In this document: positions 1 through 11,245 of the stretch, one piece after another
How the letters are laid out: each line of letters begins with the position of its first letter
Position numbering within the stretch: position 1 is the first letter of the stretch
DNA from: a virus
Strand: one strand, 5' to 3'
Virus genome (UHGV): UHGV-0140595
Length of the DNA stretch: 11,245 nt
Position numbers and translations under genes: made by a program
The notes under the pieces: generated by a model
What the model was told of the DNA's origin: nothing
Database searches by the model: none
Seen by the model: the letters and a program-made list of their open reading frames with translations, nothing else

Positions 1-3000
1 AGGAGACGGGCAGTGCTTTAGTTGCCAACACGGGTGCAGGGACTGATATCGAAGGATACAACAAGCTCTCTCACTTCACTATTACCGGAGGGGAGGCTAA
101 TTATGTTGTGCTGGAAAATACCGGCGAACTGACGGTAGTGGCTAAAACCTCGGCGAAAAATACTACCATTGATACTGGCGGTAAGCTGATTGTCCAGAAG
201 GAGGCTAAAACAGATAGCACCAGACTTAATAATGGCGGCGTTCTGGAGGTTCAGGACGGTGGTGAGGCTAAGCATGTTGAGCAACAATCCGGCGGCGCAT
301 TAATTGCTTCCACGACCTCCGGAACACTTATCGAAGGAACCAACAGTTATGGTGATGCTTTCTACATCAGGAATTCAGAAGCTAAAAATGTAGTGCTGGA
401 AAACGCTGGCTCATTAACAGTCGTCACTGGTTCCCGCGCAGTTGACACGATTATTAATGCCAACGGCAAAATGGATGTTTATGGAAAAGATGTTGGCACT
501 GTACTCAATAGTGCTGGCACCCAAACAATATATGCCAGTGCCACTTCTGATAAAGCAAATATCAAAGGTGGCAAGCAAACGGTATATGGTTTAGCCACTG
601 AAGCAAATATCGAAAGTGGTGAACAAATTGTTGATGGTGGGTCAACAGAGAAAACACACATCAATGGTGGCACGCAAACCGTTCAGAATTATGGTAAGGC
701 AATCAATACCGATATCGTCTCTGGCCTACAACAAATTATGGCAAACGGGACAGCGGAAGGTTCCATTATTAATGGGGGTTCACAGGTAGTTAATGAGGGC
801 GGTCTGGCTGAAAACTCGGTGCTTAATGACGGCGGCACACTCGATGTGCGGGAGAAAGGCAGCGCAACGGGGATACAGCAGAGTAGCCAGGGCGCTTTGG
901 TTGCAACCACCAGGGCGACGCGGGTCACAGGAACACGCGCGGATGGCGTCGCGTTCAGCATCGAGCAGGGTGCGGCGAACAATATCCTGCTGGCAAATGG
1001 CGGCGTGTTAACCGTGGAGTCAGACACCTCTTCTGACAAAACACAGGTCAATATGGGCGGACGGGAGATCGTCAAAACAAAAGCCACTGCGACAGGCACG
1101 ACGCTCACCGGCGGTGAACAAATTGTCGAGGGTGTGGCGAATGAGACAACAATTAACGACGGCGGAATACAAACAGTTTCAGCTAACGGAGAGGCAATAA
1201 AAACAAAGATCAATGAAGGCGGTACGCTGACAGTCAACGATAATGGCAAAGCGACAGATATCGTCCAGAACAGCGGTGCCGCTCTCCAGACGAGCACGGC
1301 TAACGGTATTGAAATCAGCGGTACTCACCAGTACGGTACTTTTTCCATTTCCGGCAATTTAGCGACCAATATGTTGCTGGAAAATGGCGGTAATTTATTG
1401 GTATTAGCAGGTACCGAAGCTCGCGACTCCACGGTTGGCAAGGGTGGGGCAATGCAAAACCTGGGTCAGGACTCCGCCACAAAGGTTAACTCTGGCGGGC
1501 AATATACCCTTGGGCGGTCAAAAGATGAGTTTCAGGCTCTGGCCCGGGCAGAAGATCTCCAGGTCGCTGGCGGTACGGCAATCGTCTACGCAGGTACGCT
1601 GGCGGATGCATCGGTCAGTGGCGCGACAGGAAGCCTGTCGTTAATGACGCCACGGGATAATGTTACGCCAGTTAAACTCGAAGGGGCGGTCCGGATTACC
1701 GATAGCGCGACATTGACTCTGGGAAATGGCGTCGATACCACGCTTGCCGACCTGACGGCTGCCAGCCGGGGCAGTGTCTGGCTTAACAGCAATAATTCCT
1801 GTGCAGGTACCAGCAACTGCGAATATAGAGTAAACAGTTTGCTACTCAACGACGGTGATGTTTATTTGTCAGCACAAACAGCAGCGCCTGCCACAACTAA
1901 CGGTATCTACAATACGCTGACAACCAATGAACTTTCCGGTAGCGGTAATTTCTACCTGCATACCAACGTTGCAGGCTCCCGGGGCGATCAACTGGTCGTC
2001 AACAACAACGCCACTGGTAATTTTAAAATCTTTGTTCAGGATACCGGCGTCAGCCCACAGTCTGACGACGCGATGACGCTGGTGAAAACAGGGGGAGGGG
2101 ATGCTTCGTTTACGCTGGGCAATACCGGCGGTTTCGTTGATCTTGGGACCTATGAGTATGTCCTGAAAAGTGACGGCAACAGCAACTGGAACCTGACCAA
2201 TGATGTCAAACCCAACCCGGACCCCATCCCAAATCCAAAGCCAGACCCAAAACCCGATCCAAAGCCAGACCCAAATCCAAAACCAGACCCTACTCCCGAT
2301 CCAACGCCGACACCCGTTCCGGAGAAACGCATTACGCCTTCTACGGCAGCCGTACTCAATATGGCAGCAACATTACCGTTGGTATTTGATGCTGAGCTAA
2401 ACAGTATTCGCGAGCGGTTGAACATAATGAAAGCGAGTCCACACAACAATAATGTCTGGGGGGCGACGTATAACACCCGTAATAATGTCACCACCGATGC
2501 GGGTGCCGGGTTTGAGCAGACGCTGACCGGAATGACAGTGGGGATCGACAGCCGTAATGATATTCCTGAAGGAATTACCACGCTAGGCGCTTTTATGGGC
2601 TATTCCCATTCACATATCGGTTTTGATCGCGGAGGACATGGCAGTGTGGGCAGTTATTCTCTGGGCGGCTATGCCAGTTGGGAACATGAAAGTGGTTTCT
2701 ATCTGGACGGTGTCGTGAAGCTGAACCGTTTTAAAAGTAACGTAGCAGGTAAAATGAGCAGCGGTGGAGCCGCCAATGGCAGTTACCACAGCAACGGGCT
2801 GGGCGGTCACATTGAAACCGGGATGCGATTTACCGATGGTAACTGGAACCTGACGCCGTATGCATCGTTAACGGGGTTCACCGCTGATAACCCCGAATAT
2901 CATTTATCCAATGGCATGAAATCGAAATCAGTCGATACCCGCAGTATATATCGTGAACTGGGCGCAACGCTGAGTTACAACATGCGTCTGGGGAACGGTA

Positions 3001-3242
3001 TGGAAGTTGAGCCGTGGCTGAAGGCGGCTGTGCGCAAAGAATTTGTCGATGATAACCGGGTGAAAGTGAATAGTGACGGTAATTTCGTCAATTATTTGTC
3101 GGGCAGACGTGGAATATACCAGGCAGGTATTAAAGCCTCATTCAGCAGTACGTTAAGCGGGCATCTTGGGGTGGGGTATAGCCATAGTGCCGGTGTGGAA
3201 TCCCCGTGGAACGCGGTAGCTGGTGTGAACTGGTCGTTCTGA
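1..3242 (+). CDS. AIDA-I/Ag43-type autotransporter adhesin, 5'-truncated at the window edge (repetitive passenger, Pro-rich linker, C-terminal beta-barrel translocator)
   Basis: The reading frame is open from position 3 with no stop, so the GTG at 108 in the ORF track is not the true start. The passenger shows degenerate ~19-20 aa repeats of the form GG.Q.V..G.A...I..GG. A Pro-rich linker PNPDPIPNPKPDPKPDPKPDPNPKPDPTPDPTPTPVP precedes a Gly/Tyr/Ser-rich beta-domain, and the protein ends ...AGVNWSF with the terminal aromatic typical of outer-membrane barrels. Position and orientation relative to the ssrA fragment resemble the ypjA locus of E. coli K-12, but the sequence was not matched. Confidence 0.9.
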   Translation, partial: ETGSALVANTGAGTDIEGYNKLSHFTITGGEANYVVLENTGELTVVAKTSAKNTTIDTGGKLIVQKEAKTDSTRLNNGGVLEVQDGGEAKHVEQQSGGALIASTTSGTLIEGTNSYGDAFYIRNSEAKNVVLENAGSLTVVTGSRAVDTIINANGKMDVYGKDVGTVLNSAGTQTIYASATSDKANIKGGKQTVYGLATEANIESGEQIVDGGSTEKTHINGGTQTVQNYGKAINTDIVSGLQQIMANGTAEGSIINGGSQVVNEGGLAENSVLNDGGTLDVREKGSATGIQQSSQGALVATTRATRVTGTRADGVAFSIEQGAANNILLANGGVLTVESDTSSDKTQVNMGGREIVKTKATATGTTLTGGEQIVEGVANETTINDGGIQTVSANGEAIKTKINEGGTLTVNDNGKATDIVQNSGAALQTSTANGIEISGTHQYGTFSISGNLATNMLLENGGNLLVLAGTEARDSTVGKGGAMQNLGQDSATKVNSGGQYTLGRSKDEFQALARAEDLQVAGGTAIVYAGTLADASVSGATGSLSLMTPRDNVTPVKLEGAVRITDSATLTLGNGVDTTLADLTAASRGSVWLNSNNSCAGTSNCEYRVNSLLLNDGDVYLSAQTAAPATTNGIYNTLTTNELSGSGNFYLHTNVAGSRGDQLVVNNNATGNFKIFVQDTGVSPQSDDAMTLVKTGGGDASFTLGNTGGFVDLGTYEYVLKSDGNSNWNLTNDVKPNPDPIPNPKPDPKPDPKPDPNPKPDPTPDPTPTPVPEKRITPSTAAVLNMAATLPLVFDAELNSIRERLNIMKASPHNNNVWGATYNTRNNVTTDAGAGFEQTLTGMTVGIDSRNDIPEGITTLGAFMGYSHSHIGFDRGGHGSVGSYSLGGYASWEHESGFYLDGVVKLNRFKSNVAGKMSSGGAANGSYHSNGLGGHIETGMRFTDGNWNLTPYASLTGFTADNPEYHLSNGMKSKSVDTRSIYRELGATLSYNMRLGNGMEVEPWLKAAVRKEFVDDNRVKVNSDGNFVNYLSGRRGIYQAGIKASFSSTLSGHLGVGYSHSAGVESPWNAVAGVNWSF
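2208..2322 (+). repeat. Tandem short-period repeat (units like ccagacccaaaNcc) encoding the (P-D/N/T-P-K)n linker of the autotransporter
   Basis: Directly visible reiteration of ccagaccc / ccaaagccagaccc motifs; translated as PDPKPDPKPDPNPKPDPTPDPTP. Confidence 0.6.
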
Positions 3243-3253
3243 CCATCAACGAA

Positions 3254-3275
3254 AAAGCCCACATCTGTGGGCTTT
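3254..3275 (+). terminator. Intrinsic terminator hairpin downstream of the autotransporter gene
   Basis: Perfect inverted repeat aaagcccac-atct-gtgggcttt 12 nt after the stop codon; A-tract on the left and T-tract on the right make it potentially bidirectional. Confidence 0.6.
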
Positions 3276-3402
3276 CATGTTACCAGGAGCCGCGGCTCCT
3301 TTGCGTATCCTTTTATGTCTCCTCACCGTCTGGTCGGTGTTTTGCTGAGACTTCTAACTTCCTGTTTTTGTTGGTGTTGTCCTTACACCGTCCAATCATG
3401 AT

Positions 3403-3446
3403 TGGTGGGCTGGCGGGAGTTGAACCCGCGTCCGAAATTCCTACAT
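3403..3446 (-). other. 44-nt fragment of the 3' end of the tmRNA gene ssrA: prophage attachment-site core (att)
   Basis: The minus strand reads ATGTAGGAATTTCGGACGCGGGTTCAACTCCCGCCAGCCCACCA. From memory this matches the E. coli ssrA 3' terminus (T-arm, acceptor 3' strand, CCA) except for one missing base (CAGC-CCACCA versus CAGCUCCACCA). Similarity to ssrA stops abruptly upstream of ATGTAGG, so it is a partial att copy, not a gene. Confidence 0.8.
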
Positions 3447-3563
3447 ACCATTTTTACACTAACGAAATCATATTTTTTCATTTTAAATCATGATGTTAGT
3501 GTTAATCTGTGTTTGCTTGTTTTACTTGTTTTTAGTGCTCTGCCGCCAAAGTGCCGCCATTTA

Positions 3564-4589
3564 TTAGCGATGCCAGTTGAGGTTATGAAGTGGATTTTTG
3601 GTAACGGCATCTTCCAGATGATCCGGTGCAAAATGGGCATAAATCATGGTCATTTTAATATCAGCGTGCCCTAAAATATCCCTCAATACTAAAATGTTTC
3701 CGCCGTTCATCATAAAGTGGCTGGCGAAAGTGTGGCGCAGAACGTGGGTACATTGACCTTCAGGTAGTTCAATTCCAGCTCGTTTTACCGCACGCTCAAA
3801 AGCCTTTCGGCATGGTGTGAATAACTTTCCTCTGTTTTTGGGTAATTCTTCATACAGTTCCTGAGAAATAGGAACAGTTCGGTTTTTCTTTCCTTTTGTT
3901 TTGGTATAGGTAATTCGATACTTTGATATCTGGTTACCTTGCAGGTTTTCGGCTTCGCTCCATCTTGCCCCGGTTGCCAGACAAATCTTGGCAATCATTA
4001 GCAGACTGGGACTTTGAGATTCAGCACAAGCGTCAAGCAGGCGTTTGATTTCATCAGCAGCAAGGAACGCCAGTTCACCCTCTGCAATTTTGAAAGTTGG
4101 CAGACCGGCGAGAGGGTTGGGTGCAGACCAATGTCCCAGCTTTTTCAGTGTGCCAAAAACTGAGGATAGGTTACGTTGTTCAAGGTTCACCGTTCTGGGC
4201 TTAACTGGTGACATGAGCACACCATCTTCGTTTTTGACCTCACCTTTTAATCTGGCTTCCCGGTATTTTGTGAAATCACCTGCTGTCAATTCAGAAGCGA
4301 TGGGATCGCCAAGCCCATTACAAATGATTTTTAACTTAGCCATTAATCGCTTAGGGTCAGCGAGTGTCTGACCGTACAGGGAATACCATTGCTCAATCAC
4401 TTCTGACAGTTGTCGCCGATCTTCCTTTTCTCCCAGCCAAGGTTTCTTGTTTACCTCGTCCATGGTGAAATTCTCAAACGCAATGGCTTCGCCTTTCGTC
4501 GCAAATTGTTTGCGTACGCGTTTGCCATCTCGCCCGTTTGGGTAGCATTCACATAACCACTTTCCGTTCGGCTGTTTTCTGATGGTCAT
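3564..4589 (-). CDS. int: Phage integrase, tyrosine recombinase of the P2 Int family
   Basis: 341 aa. Blocks CLATGARWSEA, HVLRHTFASHFMMNGGNI and GHADIKMTMIYAHFAP carry the R...HxxR...Y catalytic signature and closely resemble P2 Int as I recall it. Start codon lies 1 nt after the repressor stop (TGA-N1-ATG). Adjacent to att. Confidence 0.95.
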   Translation of the reverse strand: MTIRKQPNGKWLCECYPNGRDGKRVRKQFATKGEAIAFENFTMDEVNKKPWLGEKEDRRQLSEVIEQWYSLYGQTLADPKRLMAKLKIICNGLGDPIASELTAGDFTKYREARLKGEVKNEDGVLMSPVKPRTVNLEQRNLSSVFGTLKKLGHWSAPNPLAGLPTFKIAEGELAFLAADEIKRLLDACAESQSPSLLMIAKICLATGARWSEAENLQGNQISKYRITYTKTKGKKNRTVPISQELYEELPKNRGKLFTPCRKAFERAVKRAGIELPEGQCTHVLRHTFASHFMMNGGNILVLRDILGHADIKMTMIYAHFAPDHLEDAVTKNPLHNLNWHR

Positions 4590-4590
4590 A

Positions 4591-5223
4591 TCAAAGGCTC
4601 TTAATGATTTTCAGTGCGCGGCCTATTACCTTAATGTCATCCAGTTCGCACTTAAACGATGAATCATCCTGATGCACTACTAATCTGTTTCCCGGGAGTC
4701 GTGTCAATTTTACAATGCTTTTTATCCCGTCGATGTCCACTAACCACGTACCATTTACTGGTGGTGTTTGGTTGCGATCTATTAAATAAGAATCACCAGA
4801 AGTAGTCACCAGCAGCAGGTTGCTTGAGTCTGAGGGGAGTATGCTGCTATCAATGATTGCTTTTCCAGCATCGACCAATAAACCACCGTTGAGAGTTGCC
4901 TTTTCAATTTCAGGAGATACAAGCTCAGAAAGAGGTTTAACCTTGCTGGGGTTCACGGAATTGATATTTTTTTTAGGGTCAATGTTTGAACCTGGCTCGC
5001 CCTGTCCGGTGGTTAGCCATAGTAAAGAAACTCCTGTTTCCAAGGCGCACTGAATCACCCATTCTGCGGGAAAGCTATCTCTTAAGTATCTGTTTGCCAT
5101 AGTGCTTTTTGATGCACCTAAGTGATCGCAAAGTTGCTGTCTGGACTTGAAATCATAGGCTGCCATTAGTCTATGGATAGCCTCTCTTCCCCCTGTATTC
5201 TCGCCAGCTTTTACCTGTATCAT
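4591..5223 (-). CDS. cI: CI-type immunity repressor (186 CI-like; N-terminal HTH, C-terminal oligomerisation-type domain)
   Basis: 210 aa. Helix-turn-helix-like segment QQLCDHLGASKSTMANRYLR near the N-terminus. Divergent from the apl-like gene and co-oriented with, and abutting, int, as in the 186 cI-int operon. No clear LexA/lambda-type Ala-Gly cleavage site or GxSM serine motif seen. Confidence 0.8.
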   Translation of the reverse strand: MIQVKAGENTGGREAIHRLMAAYDFKSRQQLCDHLGASKSTMANRYLRDSFPAEWVIQCALETGVSLLWLTTGQGEPGSNIDPKKNINSVNPSKVKPLSELVSPEIEKATLNGGLLVDAGKAIIDSSILPSDSSNLLLVTTSGDSYLIDRNQTPPVNGTWLVDIDGIKSIVKLTRLPGNRLVVHQDDSSFKCELDDIKVIGRALKIIKSL

Positions 5224-6947: not shown

Positions 6948-7174
6948 TGGCTGATGCAATGGATCTCGTACAGCAGCGCGTTGAAGAAGAACGCCAGCGT
7001 CATATCCGTGCTGCCCGTGCCAAAACGCCGGGCGTGTCCCGCGTGCTTTGCATTGAGTGTGAAGCGCCAATTCCGCCAGCACGCCGCCGTGCCATTCCGG
7101 GTGTGCAGCTTTGCATTACCTGTCAGGAAATCGCAGAGCTGAAAGGCAAACATTACAACGGAGGTGCTGTATGA
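6947..7174 (+). CDS. TraR/DksA-family C4 zinc-finger protein (P2 orf82 type)
   Basis: 75 aa with CIEC-(N17)-CITC forming a four-cysteine zinc finger near the C-terminus, the TraR/DksA architecture. Translationally coupled on both sides (TAATG upstream, ATGA downstream). Confidence 0.85.
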   Translation: MADAMDLVQQRVEEERQRHIRAARAKTPGVSRVLCIECEAPIPPARRRAIPGVQLCITCQEIAELKGKHYNGGAV

Positions 7175-8028
7175 GCACCATTCTGAAATGGGCGGGAAAT
7201 AAAACTGCCATAATGTCAGAACTGAAAAAACACCTTCCTGCTGGCCCGCGACTGGTTGAACCTTTCGCGGGTTCCTGTGCTGTGATGATGGAGACGGATT
7301 ACCCCAGCTATCTGGTTGCGGATATTAATCCTGATTTAATCAACCTCTATAAAAAGGTTGCCGCTGATTGTGAATCGTTTATATCTCGCGCCAGAGTTTT
7401 ATTTGAGATCGCAAACAGGGAGGTGGCTTATTACAACATAAGGCAGGAGTTTAATTACTCCACTGAAATTACTGATTTCATGAAAGCGGTATATTTCCTG
7501 TATCTCAATCGTCACGGTTACCGTGGTTTATGTCGCTATAACAAGAGCGGGCATTTCAACATTCCCTACGGTAATTATAAAAATCCGTATTTCCCTGAAA
7601 AAGAAATTCGCGCATTTGCAGAAAAAGCCCAGCGGGCAACGTTTATCTGCGCCAGCTTTGATGAAACGCTGGCGATGTTGAAGGCGGGAGATGTGGTGTA
7701 TTGCGATCCGCCGTATGACGGCACGTTTTCCGGTTATCACACTGACGGCTTCACTGAAGATGACCAGTATCACCTGGCATCCGTTCTTGAACATCGGTCA
7801 TCAGAAGGACATCCGGTCATTGTTTCTAACAGTGACACATCCCTGATCCGTTCGCTGTATCGCAATTTTACTCACCACTACATCAAGGCAAAACGCAACA
7901 TCGGTGTGGCAGCTGGCGAGGGTAAATCAGCAACAGAAATCATTGCTGTTTCCGGGCCGCGCTGCTGGGTGGGATTTGATTATTCGCGTGGCGTGGACAG
8001 TTCTGCCGTGTACGGAGTACGTGCATGA
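7171..8028 (+). CDS. dam: DNA adenine methyltransferase, Dam family (probable GATC N6-adenine methyltransferase)
   Basis: 285 aa from the ATG at 7171 with RBS GGAGGT. N-terminal KWAGNK...[10 protein letters not shown] (AdoMet motif I) and DPPY at residues 179-182 (motif IV), in the same order as E. coli Dam. The track start at 7111 would overlap the traR-like gene by 64 nt and is rejected. Confidence 0.9.
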
Positions 8029-10439
8029 GTCATGCCGATATGAACAACTGCTGCGGCTTTAACGAGGCTGCCGCAGCATTCTCATGGAACAGCCCGAAAA
8101 AGGCCATTAACCCTTATCTGGACCCGGCGGAAGTTGCGCCGGTTTCTGCGCTTTCAAACCTGATCACTCTGTACGCTGCCGATAACGAGCAGGAACAACT
8201 GCGCCGCGAGGCACTGAGTGATCAGGTCTGGGAGCGTTATTTCTTTAATGAATCCCGTGATCCTGTCCAGCGCGAAATGGAGCAGGATAAGCTAATTAGC
8301 CGGGCAAAGCTGGCGCATGAGCAGCAGCGTTTTAATCCAGACATGGTCATTCTGGCGGATGTCAACGCCCAGCCTTCCCATATCAGCAAGCCGCTGATGC
8401 AACGTATTAAATACTTCAGCAACCTGGGCAGGCCAAAGGCTTATTCCCGCTATTTGCGTGAGACGATTAAGCCATGCCTGGAACGACTGGAGCATGTACG
8501 CGACAGCCAGCTATCTGCATCTTTTCGTTTTATGGCAAGCCATGAAGGGCTGGACGGTCTGCTGATCCTGCCTGAAATGAGTCAGGATCAGGTGAAACGC
8601 CTGTCCACCCTTGTCGCTGCGCATATGAGCATGTGTCTTGATGCCGCTTGTGGTGATTTGTACGCCTCCGATGATGTTAAGCCGGAAGAAATCCGCAAGA
8701 CATGGGAAAAGGTTGCAGCAGAAACCCTGCGACTGGATGTCATACCGCCTGCGTTTGAGCAACTCCGCCGGAAAAGAAACCGCCGCAAACCTGTGCCCTA
8801 TGAACTCATTCCGGGTTCGCTGGCGCGTATGCTGTGCGCCGACTGGTGGTATCGGAAATTATGGAAGATGCGTTGCGAATGGCGGGAAGAGCAGTTGCGT
8901 GCTGTCTGTCTGGTCAGCAAAAAAGCATCTCCCTATGTCAGCTATGAAGCCGTGATGCATAAACGTGAGCAGCGCCGTAAGTCGCTGGAGTTTTTCCGTT
9001 CTCATGAACTGGTGAACGAAGACGGCGACACGCTGGACATGGAGGATGTGGTAAACGCCAGCAGCAGCAACCCTGCGCATCGCCGCAATGAGATGATGGC
9101 CTGTGTTAAAGGCCTGGAGCTTATCGCGGAAATGCGCGGTGACTGCGCCGTTTTCTACACCATCACCTGTCCGTCACGTTTCCATTCCACGCTAAATAAC
9201 GGCAGGCCCAACCCGACCTGGACAAATGCGACGGTAAGACAAAGCAGTGATTATCTGGTTGGCATGTTTGCTGCATTTCGTAAGGCGATGCACAAAGCCG
9301 GATTGCGCTGGTATGGCGTGCGGGTGGCTGAGCCGCATCATGACGGTACAGTTCACTGGCACCTGTTGTGTTTTATGCGCAAAAAAGATCGCCGCGCCAT
9401 TACTGCTTTGTTGCGTAAGTTTGCCATTCGTGAAGACCGCGAGGAGCTGGGGAATAACACGGGGCCACGCTTTAAGTCTGAGTTGATTAACCCGCGCAAA
9501 GGAACGCCGACAAGCTACATCGCGAAATATATCAGTAAGAACATTGACGGGCGTGGTCTGGCTGGCGAGATCAGCAAGGAAACGGGTAAATCCCTGCGTG
9601 ATAACGCTGAATACGTGAATGCCTGGGCGTCTCTGCATCGTGTTCAGCAATTCCGCTTCTTTGGCATTCCGGGGCGTCAGGCTTACCGTGAACTGCGATT
9701 GCTGGCTGGTCAGGCGGCAAGGCAACAGGGTGACAAAAAAGCAGGTGCGCCGGTACTGGATAACCCGCGCCTTGATGCAATCCTGGCTGCTGCTGATGCT
9801 GGTTGTTTTGCCACCTACATCATGAAGCAGGGCGGCGTACTGGTTCCCCGTAAATATCACCTCATCAGAACTGCTTATGAAATCAACGAAGAGCCGACCG
9901 CCTATGGCGATCACGGCATTCGTATTTATGGCATCTGGTCACCTATTGCAGAGGGCAAGATCTGCACTCATGCCGTGAAGTGGAAAATGGTTCGTAAGGC
10001 CGTTGACGTTCAGGAGGCGGCAGCCGACCAGGGCGCTTGCGCCCCTTGGACTCGTGGCAATAACTGTCCCCTTGCTGAAAATTTGTACCAACAAGGGAAA
10101 GACAAATCAACTGATGGAGATACCAGAACGGATATCACCCGCATGGATGACAAGGAGTTGCACGATTACCTGCACAGTATGAGCAAAAAAGAGCGCCGGG
10201 AACTGGCAGCAAGGTTACGCCTGGTGAAACCGAAACGGCGTAAAGACTACAAACAGCGAATTACAGACCATCAGCGACTGCAGCTCGTGTATGAACTGAA
10301 GTCCAGGGGATTTGATGGCAGCGAGAAAGAGGTCGATTTACTGCTTCGCGGCGGCAGTATTCCGTCAGGAGCAGGCCTACGTATCTTCTATCGGAACCAG
10401 CGTTTGCAGGAAGATGATAAGTGGCGAAACCTGTATTAA
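8025..10439 (+). CDS. Replication initiation endonuclease, P2 gpA-like (HUH rolling-circle initiator)
   Basis: 804 aa. HUH motif VHWHLL (H444-W-H446) and twin-tyrosine motif YIAKYISK (Y498, Y502) in the phiX174 gpA / P2 gpA arrangement. Start overlaps the dam stop (ATGA). Confidence 0.9.
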
Positions 10440-10508: not shown

Positions 10509-10535
10509 TTTACATCAGTAAGATTATTATATACT
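10509..10535 (+). promoter_or_regulatory. Candidate sigma70 promoter for the SOS module (-35 TTTACA, -10 TATACT)
   Basis: TTTACA at 10509-10514 and TATACT at 10530-10535 with a 15-nt spacer. Exact elements are uncertain; the region is extremely AT-rich. Confidence 0.35.
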
Positions 10536-10551
10536 GTAAATATAAACAGTG
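10532..10551. promoter_or_regulatory. LexA operator (SOS box) TACTGT-aaatataa-ACAGTG
   Basis: Exact CTGT-N8-ACAG with a TA-rich spacer at 10534-10549, about 40 bp upstream of the ORF at 10592. A degenerate overlapping second half-site, ACAG at 10561-10564, may form a weak second box. Confidence 0.75.
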
Positions 10552-10591
10552 GTTATATATACAGTATTGCTTTGGTGTCATAGGAGGAAAG

Positions 10592-10780
10592 ATGCAGGAC
10601 TATTTTTTGGAGTCTTTGAAGCTCCAGCGCATTGATTTTTTTCTTAAGCTTGTTGCGGCTAGTGAGTGTAGTGATGAAGAGAAGGGGCTGGCTCTGCAGT
10701 GGGTTTCTGAATTGACTGATGAACTCATGGCAAAAATCAGAAGCCACGAATACAACCGCTCAATGGATGTCATCAGCTGA
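10592..10780 (+). CDS. Hypothetical small acidic protein, first gene of the LexA-controlled module (possible Tum-like antirepressor N-terminal part)
   Basis: 62 aa; strong RBS AGGAGG 4 nt upstream of the ATG; immediately downstream of the SOS box. Confidence 0.6.
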   Translation: MQDYFLESLKLQRIDFFLKLVAASECSDEEKGLALQWVSELTDELMAKIRSHEYNRSMDVIS

Positions 10781-10790
10781 GGTGACTTTT

Positions 10791-11024
10791 ATGCGCATTG
10801 AAATAATGATCGATAAAGAGCAGAAGATTAGCCAGTCTACCCTGGACGCCCTTGAATCCGAGCTTTACCGCAATCTGCGCCCCCTGTATCCCAAAACGGT
10901 AATCCGTATCCGTAAAGGTAGCTCTAACGGTGTGGAACTGACCGGACTGCAACTGGACGAAGAAAGAAAACAAGTGATGAAAATTATGCAGAAGGTGTGG
11001 GAAGACGACAGCTGGCTGCATTGA
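10791..11024 (+). CDS. dinI: DinI-family protein (DNA-damage-inducible protein I-like)
   Basis: 77 aa, MRIEIMIDK...LDALESEL...DEERKQVMKIMQKVWEDDSWLH, which aligns along its length with E. coli DinI (MRIEVTIAK...IDALAGEL...KEDKQRISEILQETWESADDWF) as I recall it. RBS GAGGTG overlaps the upstream stop. The longer track start at 10719 is rejected. Confidence 0.8.
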   Translation: MRIEIMIDKEQKISQSTLDALESELYRNLRPLYPKTVIRIRKGSSNGVELTGLQLDEERKQVMKIMQKVWEDDSWLH

Positions 11025-11079
11025 TTTTGTCAATAGACGCTTGTTTTTACTAATCAAAAAGGGTTACATATGAGTGAGA

Positions 11080-11111
11080 GGCGATGTCAATCAGATATCG
11101 CCTTGTTTTTT
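11080..11111 (+). terminator. Rho-independent terminator after the dinI-like gene
   Basis: Stem ggcgat / atcgcc with an 11-nt loop, followed by ttgttttttg. Confidence 0.6.
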
Positions 11112-11245
11112 GTCAAGAAAAGAATAATAGGCTAAAAATGAAAATTAATAATGTAGCGTTACCAATATCTCTTGCTGTAATCCTAACTGGTTGGTAATGC
11201 TGCCAACTTACTGATTTAGTGTATGATGGTGATTTTAAGGTGCTT

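Follow-up and report, generated by a model that had tools for sequence, protein, structure and literature searches.

The 11,245-nt stretch of the virus genome UHGV-0140595 analysed here (the window) encodes a CI immunity repressor at 4591-5223 in which no match to an S24 peptidase domain was found, and this raises the question of how a prophage of this kind could be induced by DNA damage. A repressor without a self-cleavage domain would not respond directly to RecA, so that an antirepressor is needed. Three readings of the segment 3' of the replication gene had been offered in the preliminary description: a two-gene version of the Tum-style antirepressor circuit of coliphage 186, a frameshifted and inactive tum, and a fusion protein that depends on frameshifting. 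We favour the first and estimate a probability of about 0.88 that the module is the SOS induction operon of a Fels-2-like (Peduoviridae) Escherichia coli prophage in its split, tumA-tumB form. The analysis bears on this through the gene structure, the homology of both halves to 186 Tum, the conservation of the LexA box, the selection on the first gene and the near-identity to Fels-2; the binding of LexA, the binding of TumA to CI and the role of TumB are proposed from work on 186, PSP3 and Fels-2. The features concerned are as follows.

3564-4589, minus strand: integrase
4591-5223, minus strand: CI immunity repressor, presumed target of TumA, with Phage_CI_repr and Phage_CI_C domains
8025-10439: replication gene A, directly 5' of the SOS box and the two-gene module
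10509-10537, plus strand: putative sigma-70 promoter read from the sequence, counterpart of 186 p95
10532-10551, plus strand: SOS box 1, predicted LexA site, TACTGTAAATATAAACAGTG
10547-10566, plus strand: SOS box 2, predicted, CAGTGGTTATATATACAGTA, overlapping box 1 by 5 nt
10592-10780, plus strand: tumA-type gene for a 62-aa putative antirepressor homologue, orthologue of Fels-2 STM2728, phrog_698
10791-11024, plus strand: tumB-type gene for a 77-aa DinI-family protein, with its own Shine-Dalgarno sequence GAGGTG at 10779-10784
11078-11111, plus strand: intrinsic terminator (stem 11078-11104, 11-bp stem with a 5-nt loop, then a T run) that closes the two-gene operon

A P2/186-like prophage is represented in the window by its left part: integrase, CI, early genes, Dam methylase and gene A, in that order. 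Its best complete-genome match is an E. coli chromosome (99.9% identity), in which the prophage adjoins the ypjA/EhaD autotransporter gene. Over the 806 bases 3' of gene A, identity is 97.6% to Salmonella phage Fels-2 and 97-98% to many P2-like phages of Klebsiella, Salmonella and Escherichia. Of 5426 complete E. coli genomes, 1125, roughly one fifth, contain the split module. The layout given in the preliminary description holds: the module lies immediately after gene A, likewise in relatives; the 62-aa and 77-aa ORFs are separated by 10 nt, the reading frame of the second being +1 with respect to that of the first; and the pair is closed by a terminator, which corresponds in position to t95a of 186.

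The putative promoter consists of a -35 element TTTACA at 10509-10514 and a -10 element, TATACT or TACTGT, at 10530-10537. It aligns with the annotated p95 promoter of 186, whose -10 element is likewise TACTGT within the LexA box; a simple promoter scan made no call at 10509-10537. The near-consensus SOS box that had been pointed out in this AT-rich region, CTGT-N8-ACAG at 10534-10549, occurs once in the window, where chance alone would give 0.13 matches, and TACTGTAAATATAAACAGTG is the only site in the window with at most three mismatches to the 20-nt LexA consensus (0/200 shuffles). A box with intact CTG and CAG cores lies 5' of the orthologous gene in all 31 genome loci with enough upstream sequence; between the constant cores, the spacer bases differ from locus to locus. 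This conservation, together with the work on 186, PSP3 and Fels-2, suggests that the operon is under LexA control.

A second box, CAGTGGTTATATATACAGTA, had been overlooked. It is offset 15 nt downstream of the first and recurs in 19 of the 31 related genome loci. Alignment to ColE1-like promoters shows the two overlapping boxes at 10532-10566, 15 bp apart, to be homologous to the operators of ColE operons: the 35-nt double operator of the ColE1-type colicin promoter has nearly the same sequence (~85% identity over 48 nt), and its second box differs from CAGTGGTTATATATACAGTA by one or two bases. A plasmid search with a 56-nt operator stretch gave matches in 980 records, chiefly of small Col plasmids, in one of which the match lies 37 nt 5' of a colicin E1-like gene. 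The two settings differ in that the colicin operator controls a colicin gene on a plasmid and the one in the window a prophage antirepressor operon; the -35 region and leader also differ, and the alignment has a 16-nt gap relative to ColE1. A single SOS box is present in 186, in PSP3 and in 80 of 80 186-type contigs. Double SOS boxes of colicin genes bind two LexA dimers (PMC2994835), and by analogy repression of the Fels-2-type promoter is probably tighter, and its firing later in the SOS response.

The 62-aa ORF is preceded by a Shine-Dalgarno sequence, AGGAGG, at 10582-10587. Its product is 97% identical to Fels-2 STM2728 and belongs to phrog_698 (E 5.9e-38); searches of Pfam and NCBIfam gave no family for it. 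Pairwise BLASTP found no similarity of the 62-aa protein to either 186 Tum or PSP3 TumA, so that profile methods were needed, and the homology to Tum is a profile-level one throughout. Residues 7-44 of 186 Tum match phrog_698, the ORF's own family (E 2.4e-5), and phrog_8554 is matched by both proteins. We aligned 28 diverse relatives of the 62-aa protein and, separately, 20 relatives of the N-terminus of 186 Tum; in an hhalign comparison of the two alignments, residues 3-44 matched residues 3-44 with a probability of 95.9% (E 5e-9). Both families share the pattern E-x5-R-[IV]-x5-[RK]-L-x-A-x3-C-x3-[DE]-[KR]-x-[LI]-A-[LI]-x-[WL]-[IV]-[AS]-E-[LI]. By these profiles, the 62-aa protein and the N-terminal half of 186 Tum, its antirepressor part, are distant homologues. 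The AlphaFold model is a two-helix hairpin (helices 2-23 and 28-61, pLDDT 88); a PDB sequence search with the protein returned nothing, and Foldseek with the model returned generic helical hairpins only, none with E < 0.001. The gene is labelled 'hypothetical protein' in RefSeq (WP_001154431.1) and in most phage records, occasionally 'levan regulatory protein', and none of the records found for it carries the name TumA. It could now be named a TumA-type antirepressor, which would correct the widespread annotation as a hypothetical protein.

The closest known counterpart is in Fels-2, where STM2728 and STM2726.1 form the same two genes in the same order, with the same 10-nt gap, double SOS box and terminator. 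STM2728 is annotated as hypothetical and STM2726.1 as DinI family, 'similar to TumB of PSP3'. The prophage in the window differs from Fels-2 in its host, E. coli, and its site by ypjA/EhaD, in its CI, which is just 57% identical, and in the cargo gene past the terminator. In both Fels-2 and PSP3 tum is split in two (Lemire et al. 2011, PMC3121763), and the upstream gene of PSP3 is reported there, second-hand from a personal communication, to carry antirepressor activity (PMC3121763). Fels-2 is reported to be LexA-inducible, being induced in lexA null cells. The tumA/tumB genes of PSP3 show the same split after gene A and under a LexA box; its record describes tumA as 'similar to 5' end 186 tum; UV induction of prophage' and tumB as 'similar to dinI and 3' end of 186 tum'. 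PSP3 TumA falls in the 186-like subfamily phrog_1993, not in phrog_698, and the PSP3 genes are in frame with a 3-nt gap under a single SOS box, whereas the window has a 10-nt gap and a double box.

Phage 186 has, at the same position, the LexA-repressed promoter p95, a LexA site, the tum gene and the terminator t95a. In line with the preliminary description, its Tum is a 146-aa protein whose C-terminal half is DinI-like; the N-terminal part is the antirepressor, and Tum acts on a CI from the Pfam family that also includes the CI of the window. 186 Tum binds CI, blocks its DNA binding and is needed for induction by the SOS response (PMC3121763). The 186 record adds that a 77-aa DinI-like product is also made from an internal GTG start and that the truncated product 'modulates SOS induction'. 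In contrast to the window, 186 has one fused gene with internal starts and a single SOS box, followed by orf97, which is absent in the window.

From these parallels, the following course of events can be proposed. In a healthy cell LexA would sit on the double overlapping operator, which covers the -10 element and the transcription start of a promoter just 3' of gene A, and its occupancy would keep the operon silent. DNA damage would activate RecA, LexA would cleave itself and the operon would be transcribed. TumA, a predicted helical hairpin, would then bind the non-self-cleaving CI and stop it from binding its operator, upon which the early lytic promoter would fire and the prophage would be induced. 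TumB would be co-transcribed and translated from its own ribosome-binding site, 9-12 nt past the stop codon of tumA. Its most likely role is to bind RecA filaments and adjust how strong the SOS signal is or how long it lasts, as an accessory outside the antirepressor. Such a module would explain how the prophage responds to DNA-damaging antibiotics in spite of a repressor that does not cleave itself.

The competing reading that survives best, and that we nevertheless consider unlikely, is that the 62-aa protein is SOS-induced but acts on a target other than CI, for instance a host or RecA-related one together with its DinI-like partner, and that the prophage is induced by another route. The likeness to 186 Tum is distant and TumA has no solved structure or motif, both of which leave room for such a target. 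The same is true of the relation between TumA and CI. The CI of the window is 57% identical to that of Fels-2 and 32% identical to that of 186, and across 25 loci, in which TumA identity ranged from 69 to 98% and CI identity from 33 to 92%, correlated divergence of the two proteins was sought and not found (Mantel rho -0.11, p 0.87); in one Escherichia locus TumA is 98% identical and CI about 45%. This decoupling is not predicted by a simple one-to-one co-evolving pair. Against a target other than CI stand the profile homology, which covers exactly the N-terminal region of Tum, the gene position and LexA control, which are as in 186, the need for an antirepressor that follows from a CI without a self-cleavage domain, and the induction of Fels-2 when LexA is lost. 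At the family level, moreover, Tum type tracks the type of CI N-terminal domain, the nearest neighbour of a CI sharing its Tum type in 83 of 85 cases.

An action of TumA on CI can be reconciled with the decoupling if the surface recognised is a conserved one. The residues conserved across these CIs are mainly in the N-terminal DNA-binding domain. Among partners of Fels-2-type TumA the median identity of the CI N-terminal domain is 62%, compared with 41% between Fels-2-type and 186-type partners; for the C-terminal domain the corresponding values are 34% and 30%. These figures fit a model in which TumA recognises the N-terminal domain of CI at a conserved surface; such contact would account for the block of DNA binding. 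Phage lineage is a confounder in the association of Tum type with the CI N-terminal domain, and we treat the model as a lead only. One locus, from Pantoea stewartii, is the sole one to combine a Fels-2-type TumA with a CI about 69% identical to CIs that normally occur with a 186-type Tum; it may have arisen by natural recombination, or it may hint at cross-compatibility.

Taken further, and tentatively, Fels-2-type TumA may be a broad-spectrum antirepressor of the conserved CI N-terminal surface whose operon has acquired a colicin-type double operator that delays induction; we think this possible, with the odds somewhat against it. If it were so, a near-invariant 62-aa TumA could inactivate heteroimmune CIs that are 33-92% identical and thereby cross-induce co-resident 186/Fels-2-like prophages, and the double operator would delay induction until DNA damage is severe or prolonged, unlike in the single-box 186 type. 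The double SOS box and the decoupling of TumA from CI thus provide small, testable leads on the timing of induction and on cross-talk between prophages.

Much less probable is the second reading in the preliminary description, according to which a frameshift disrupted a fused ancestral 146-aa gene, so that only an inactive remnant persists and the prophage is non-inducible. It would account for two ORFs in different frames 10 nt apart, and the fused gene is indeed present in 77 of 80 viral contigs with a 186-type N-terminus. We compared 33 loci from different species, which included Escherichia, Citrobacter, Klebsiella, Enterobacter, Serratia, Pantoea, Erwinia, Tatumella and others. In 32 of these loci, from Escherichia to Pantoea, the 62-aa ORF is intact; it has exactly 62 codons in 29 and directly follows gene A wherever upstream sequence exists. 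A dN/dS near 1, or absence of the ORF from relatives, had been named beforehand as evidence against the proposed circuit; relative to the copy in the window, dN/dS came out at 0.03-0.13, even at saturated synonymous sites, and the median over 404 pairs was 0.07. The gene is thus under strong purifying selection, and neither relaxed selection nor sporadic disruption of the kind seen in pseudogenes was found. This selection and conservation exclude a decaying tum. Both ORFs also have their own Shine-Dalgarno sequence and ATG, the module is as common in E. coli genomes as stated above, and Fels-2, with the same arrangement, is LexA-inducible. Fused and split tum are both stable architectures, each in its own lineage.

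The third reading, a programmed +1 or -1 frameshift across 10719-10790 that would yield a fused, Tum-like active antirepressor, has in its favour that the DinI frame is open upstream to 10719 and that a hairpin at 10769-10786 (-12 kcal/mol) lies at the junction, and we regard it as hardly credible, since in related loci 9, 10, 11 or 12 nt separate the stop codon of tumA from the start of the DinI gene, whose relative frame is 0, +1 or +2, so that the frame relation is not conserved and a frameshift-dependent fusion is excluded. The 101-aa ORF at 10719-11024 arises only because the DinI frame stays open 5' of the true start codon. No canonical slippery heptamer was seen in the overlap, which was read by eye. 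The hairpin has 6 bp (the energy is that of the whole-junction fold) and covers the tumA stop and the tumB Shine-Dalgarno sequence; it is common to the window and Fels-2 and is not kept in more distant loci. It was rejected as a coupling or frameshift element on this ground, and is probably not a regulatory element. Neither a conserved frame relation nor a conserved stimulatory structure, as expected of programmed frameshifting, was found at the junction.

Loss of the second gene points the same way. About 12 loci lack the DinI gene and about 4 have a truncated one, together about half of the loci, and the 62-aa gene is intact there, which argues against a fused product and for the 62-aa protein as the essential part of the split operon, with the DinI-like protein as the accessory. 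The assignment of the second ORF to the DinI family was borne out by Pfam PF06183 (E 6.6e-23; 81.3 bits against a cut-off of 24.2; residues 14-76). The 77-aa protein is 100% identical to Fels-2 STM2726.1, 78% identical to PSP3 TumB and 41% identical to the C-terminus of 186 Tum; the alignment of both ORFs to 186 Tum that had been suggested thus links the second one directly and the 62-aa ORF by profile, not by BLASTP. The homologous C-terminal half of 186 Tum in turn matches the solved DinI structure 1ghh (E 2e-6). Against NCBIfam NF007893, the equivalog for chromosomal DinI, the 77-aa protein scores 42.7 bits, below the cut-off of 111. On these scores it is a phage DinI-like paralogue and not the host DinI. 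Membership of the family makes it most likely that TumB binds RecA filaments and tunes the SOS response.

[quoted passage not shown] In the Gifsy operons dinI comes first, the reverse of the order in the window (PMC3121763), and by the description given in that paper their antirepressors and repressors are set apart from Tum and the 186-type CI (PMC3121763).

The feature is therefore real and of a known kind, the LexA-TumA/TumB induction module of Fels-2-like prophages, for which the split of tum has already been published. The two-gene, Tum-style circuit proposed at the outset is upheld by the profile homology to the Tum N-terminus, by tumA/tumB of PSP3 and by the published account (PMC3121763). 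What is added here is the profile-level membership of the 62-aa protein with the Tum N-terminus, the colicin-type double operator and the decoupling of TumA from CI, none of which changes the classification.

Some features of the surrounding DNA may be mentioned. The DNA adenine methylase gene (7111-8028) is part of the early operon and overlaps the start of gene A; its Fels-2 counterpart is annotated as similar to the Dam of retron Ec67. At its other end the prophage directly adjoins the 3' part of the adhesin-like autotransporter gene (ypjA/EhaD; window 108-3563). Scans of the whole window for tRNA, tmRNA and Rfam families were empty, and the attachment-site region is expected between 3243 and 3563. 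Downstream of the terminator, an ORF that starts at 11139 runs off the end of the window at 11245. It shows no similarity to 186 orf97 or to Fels-2 STM2726, and was on this account rejected as an orf97 counterpart that would extend the SOS operon. Similarity to Fels-2 ends at about 11193. In the complete E. coli locus the ORF corresponds to a 225-aa hypothetical protein, which is followed by a DUF262 protein. A variable slot for cargo genes seems to lie between tum and the portal gene. In the related E. coli prophage H158, a GapS1 family protein is among the features listed under a match interrupted by extra DNA, and RE2010 carries an 'abortive infection protein' at the position corresponding to the cargo slot.
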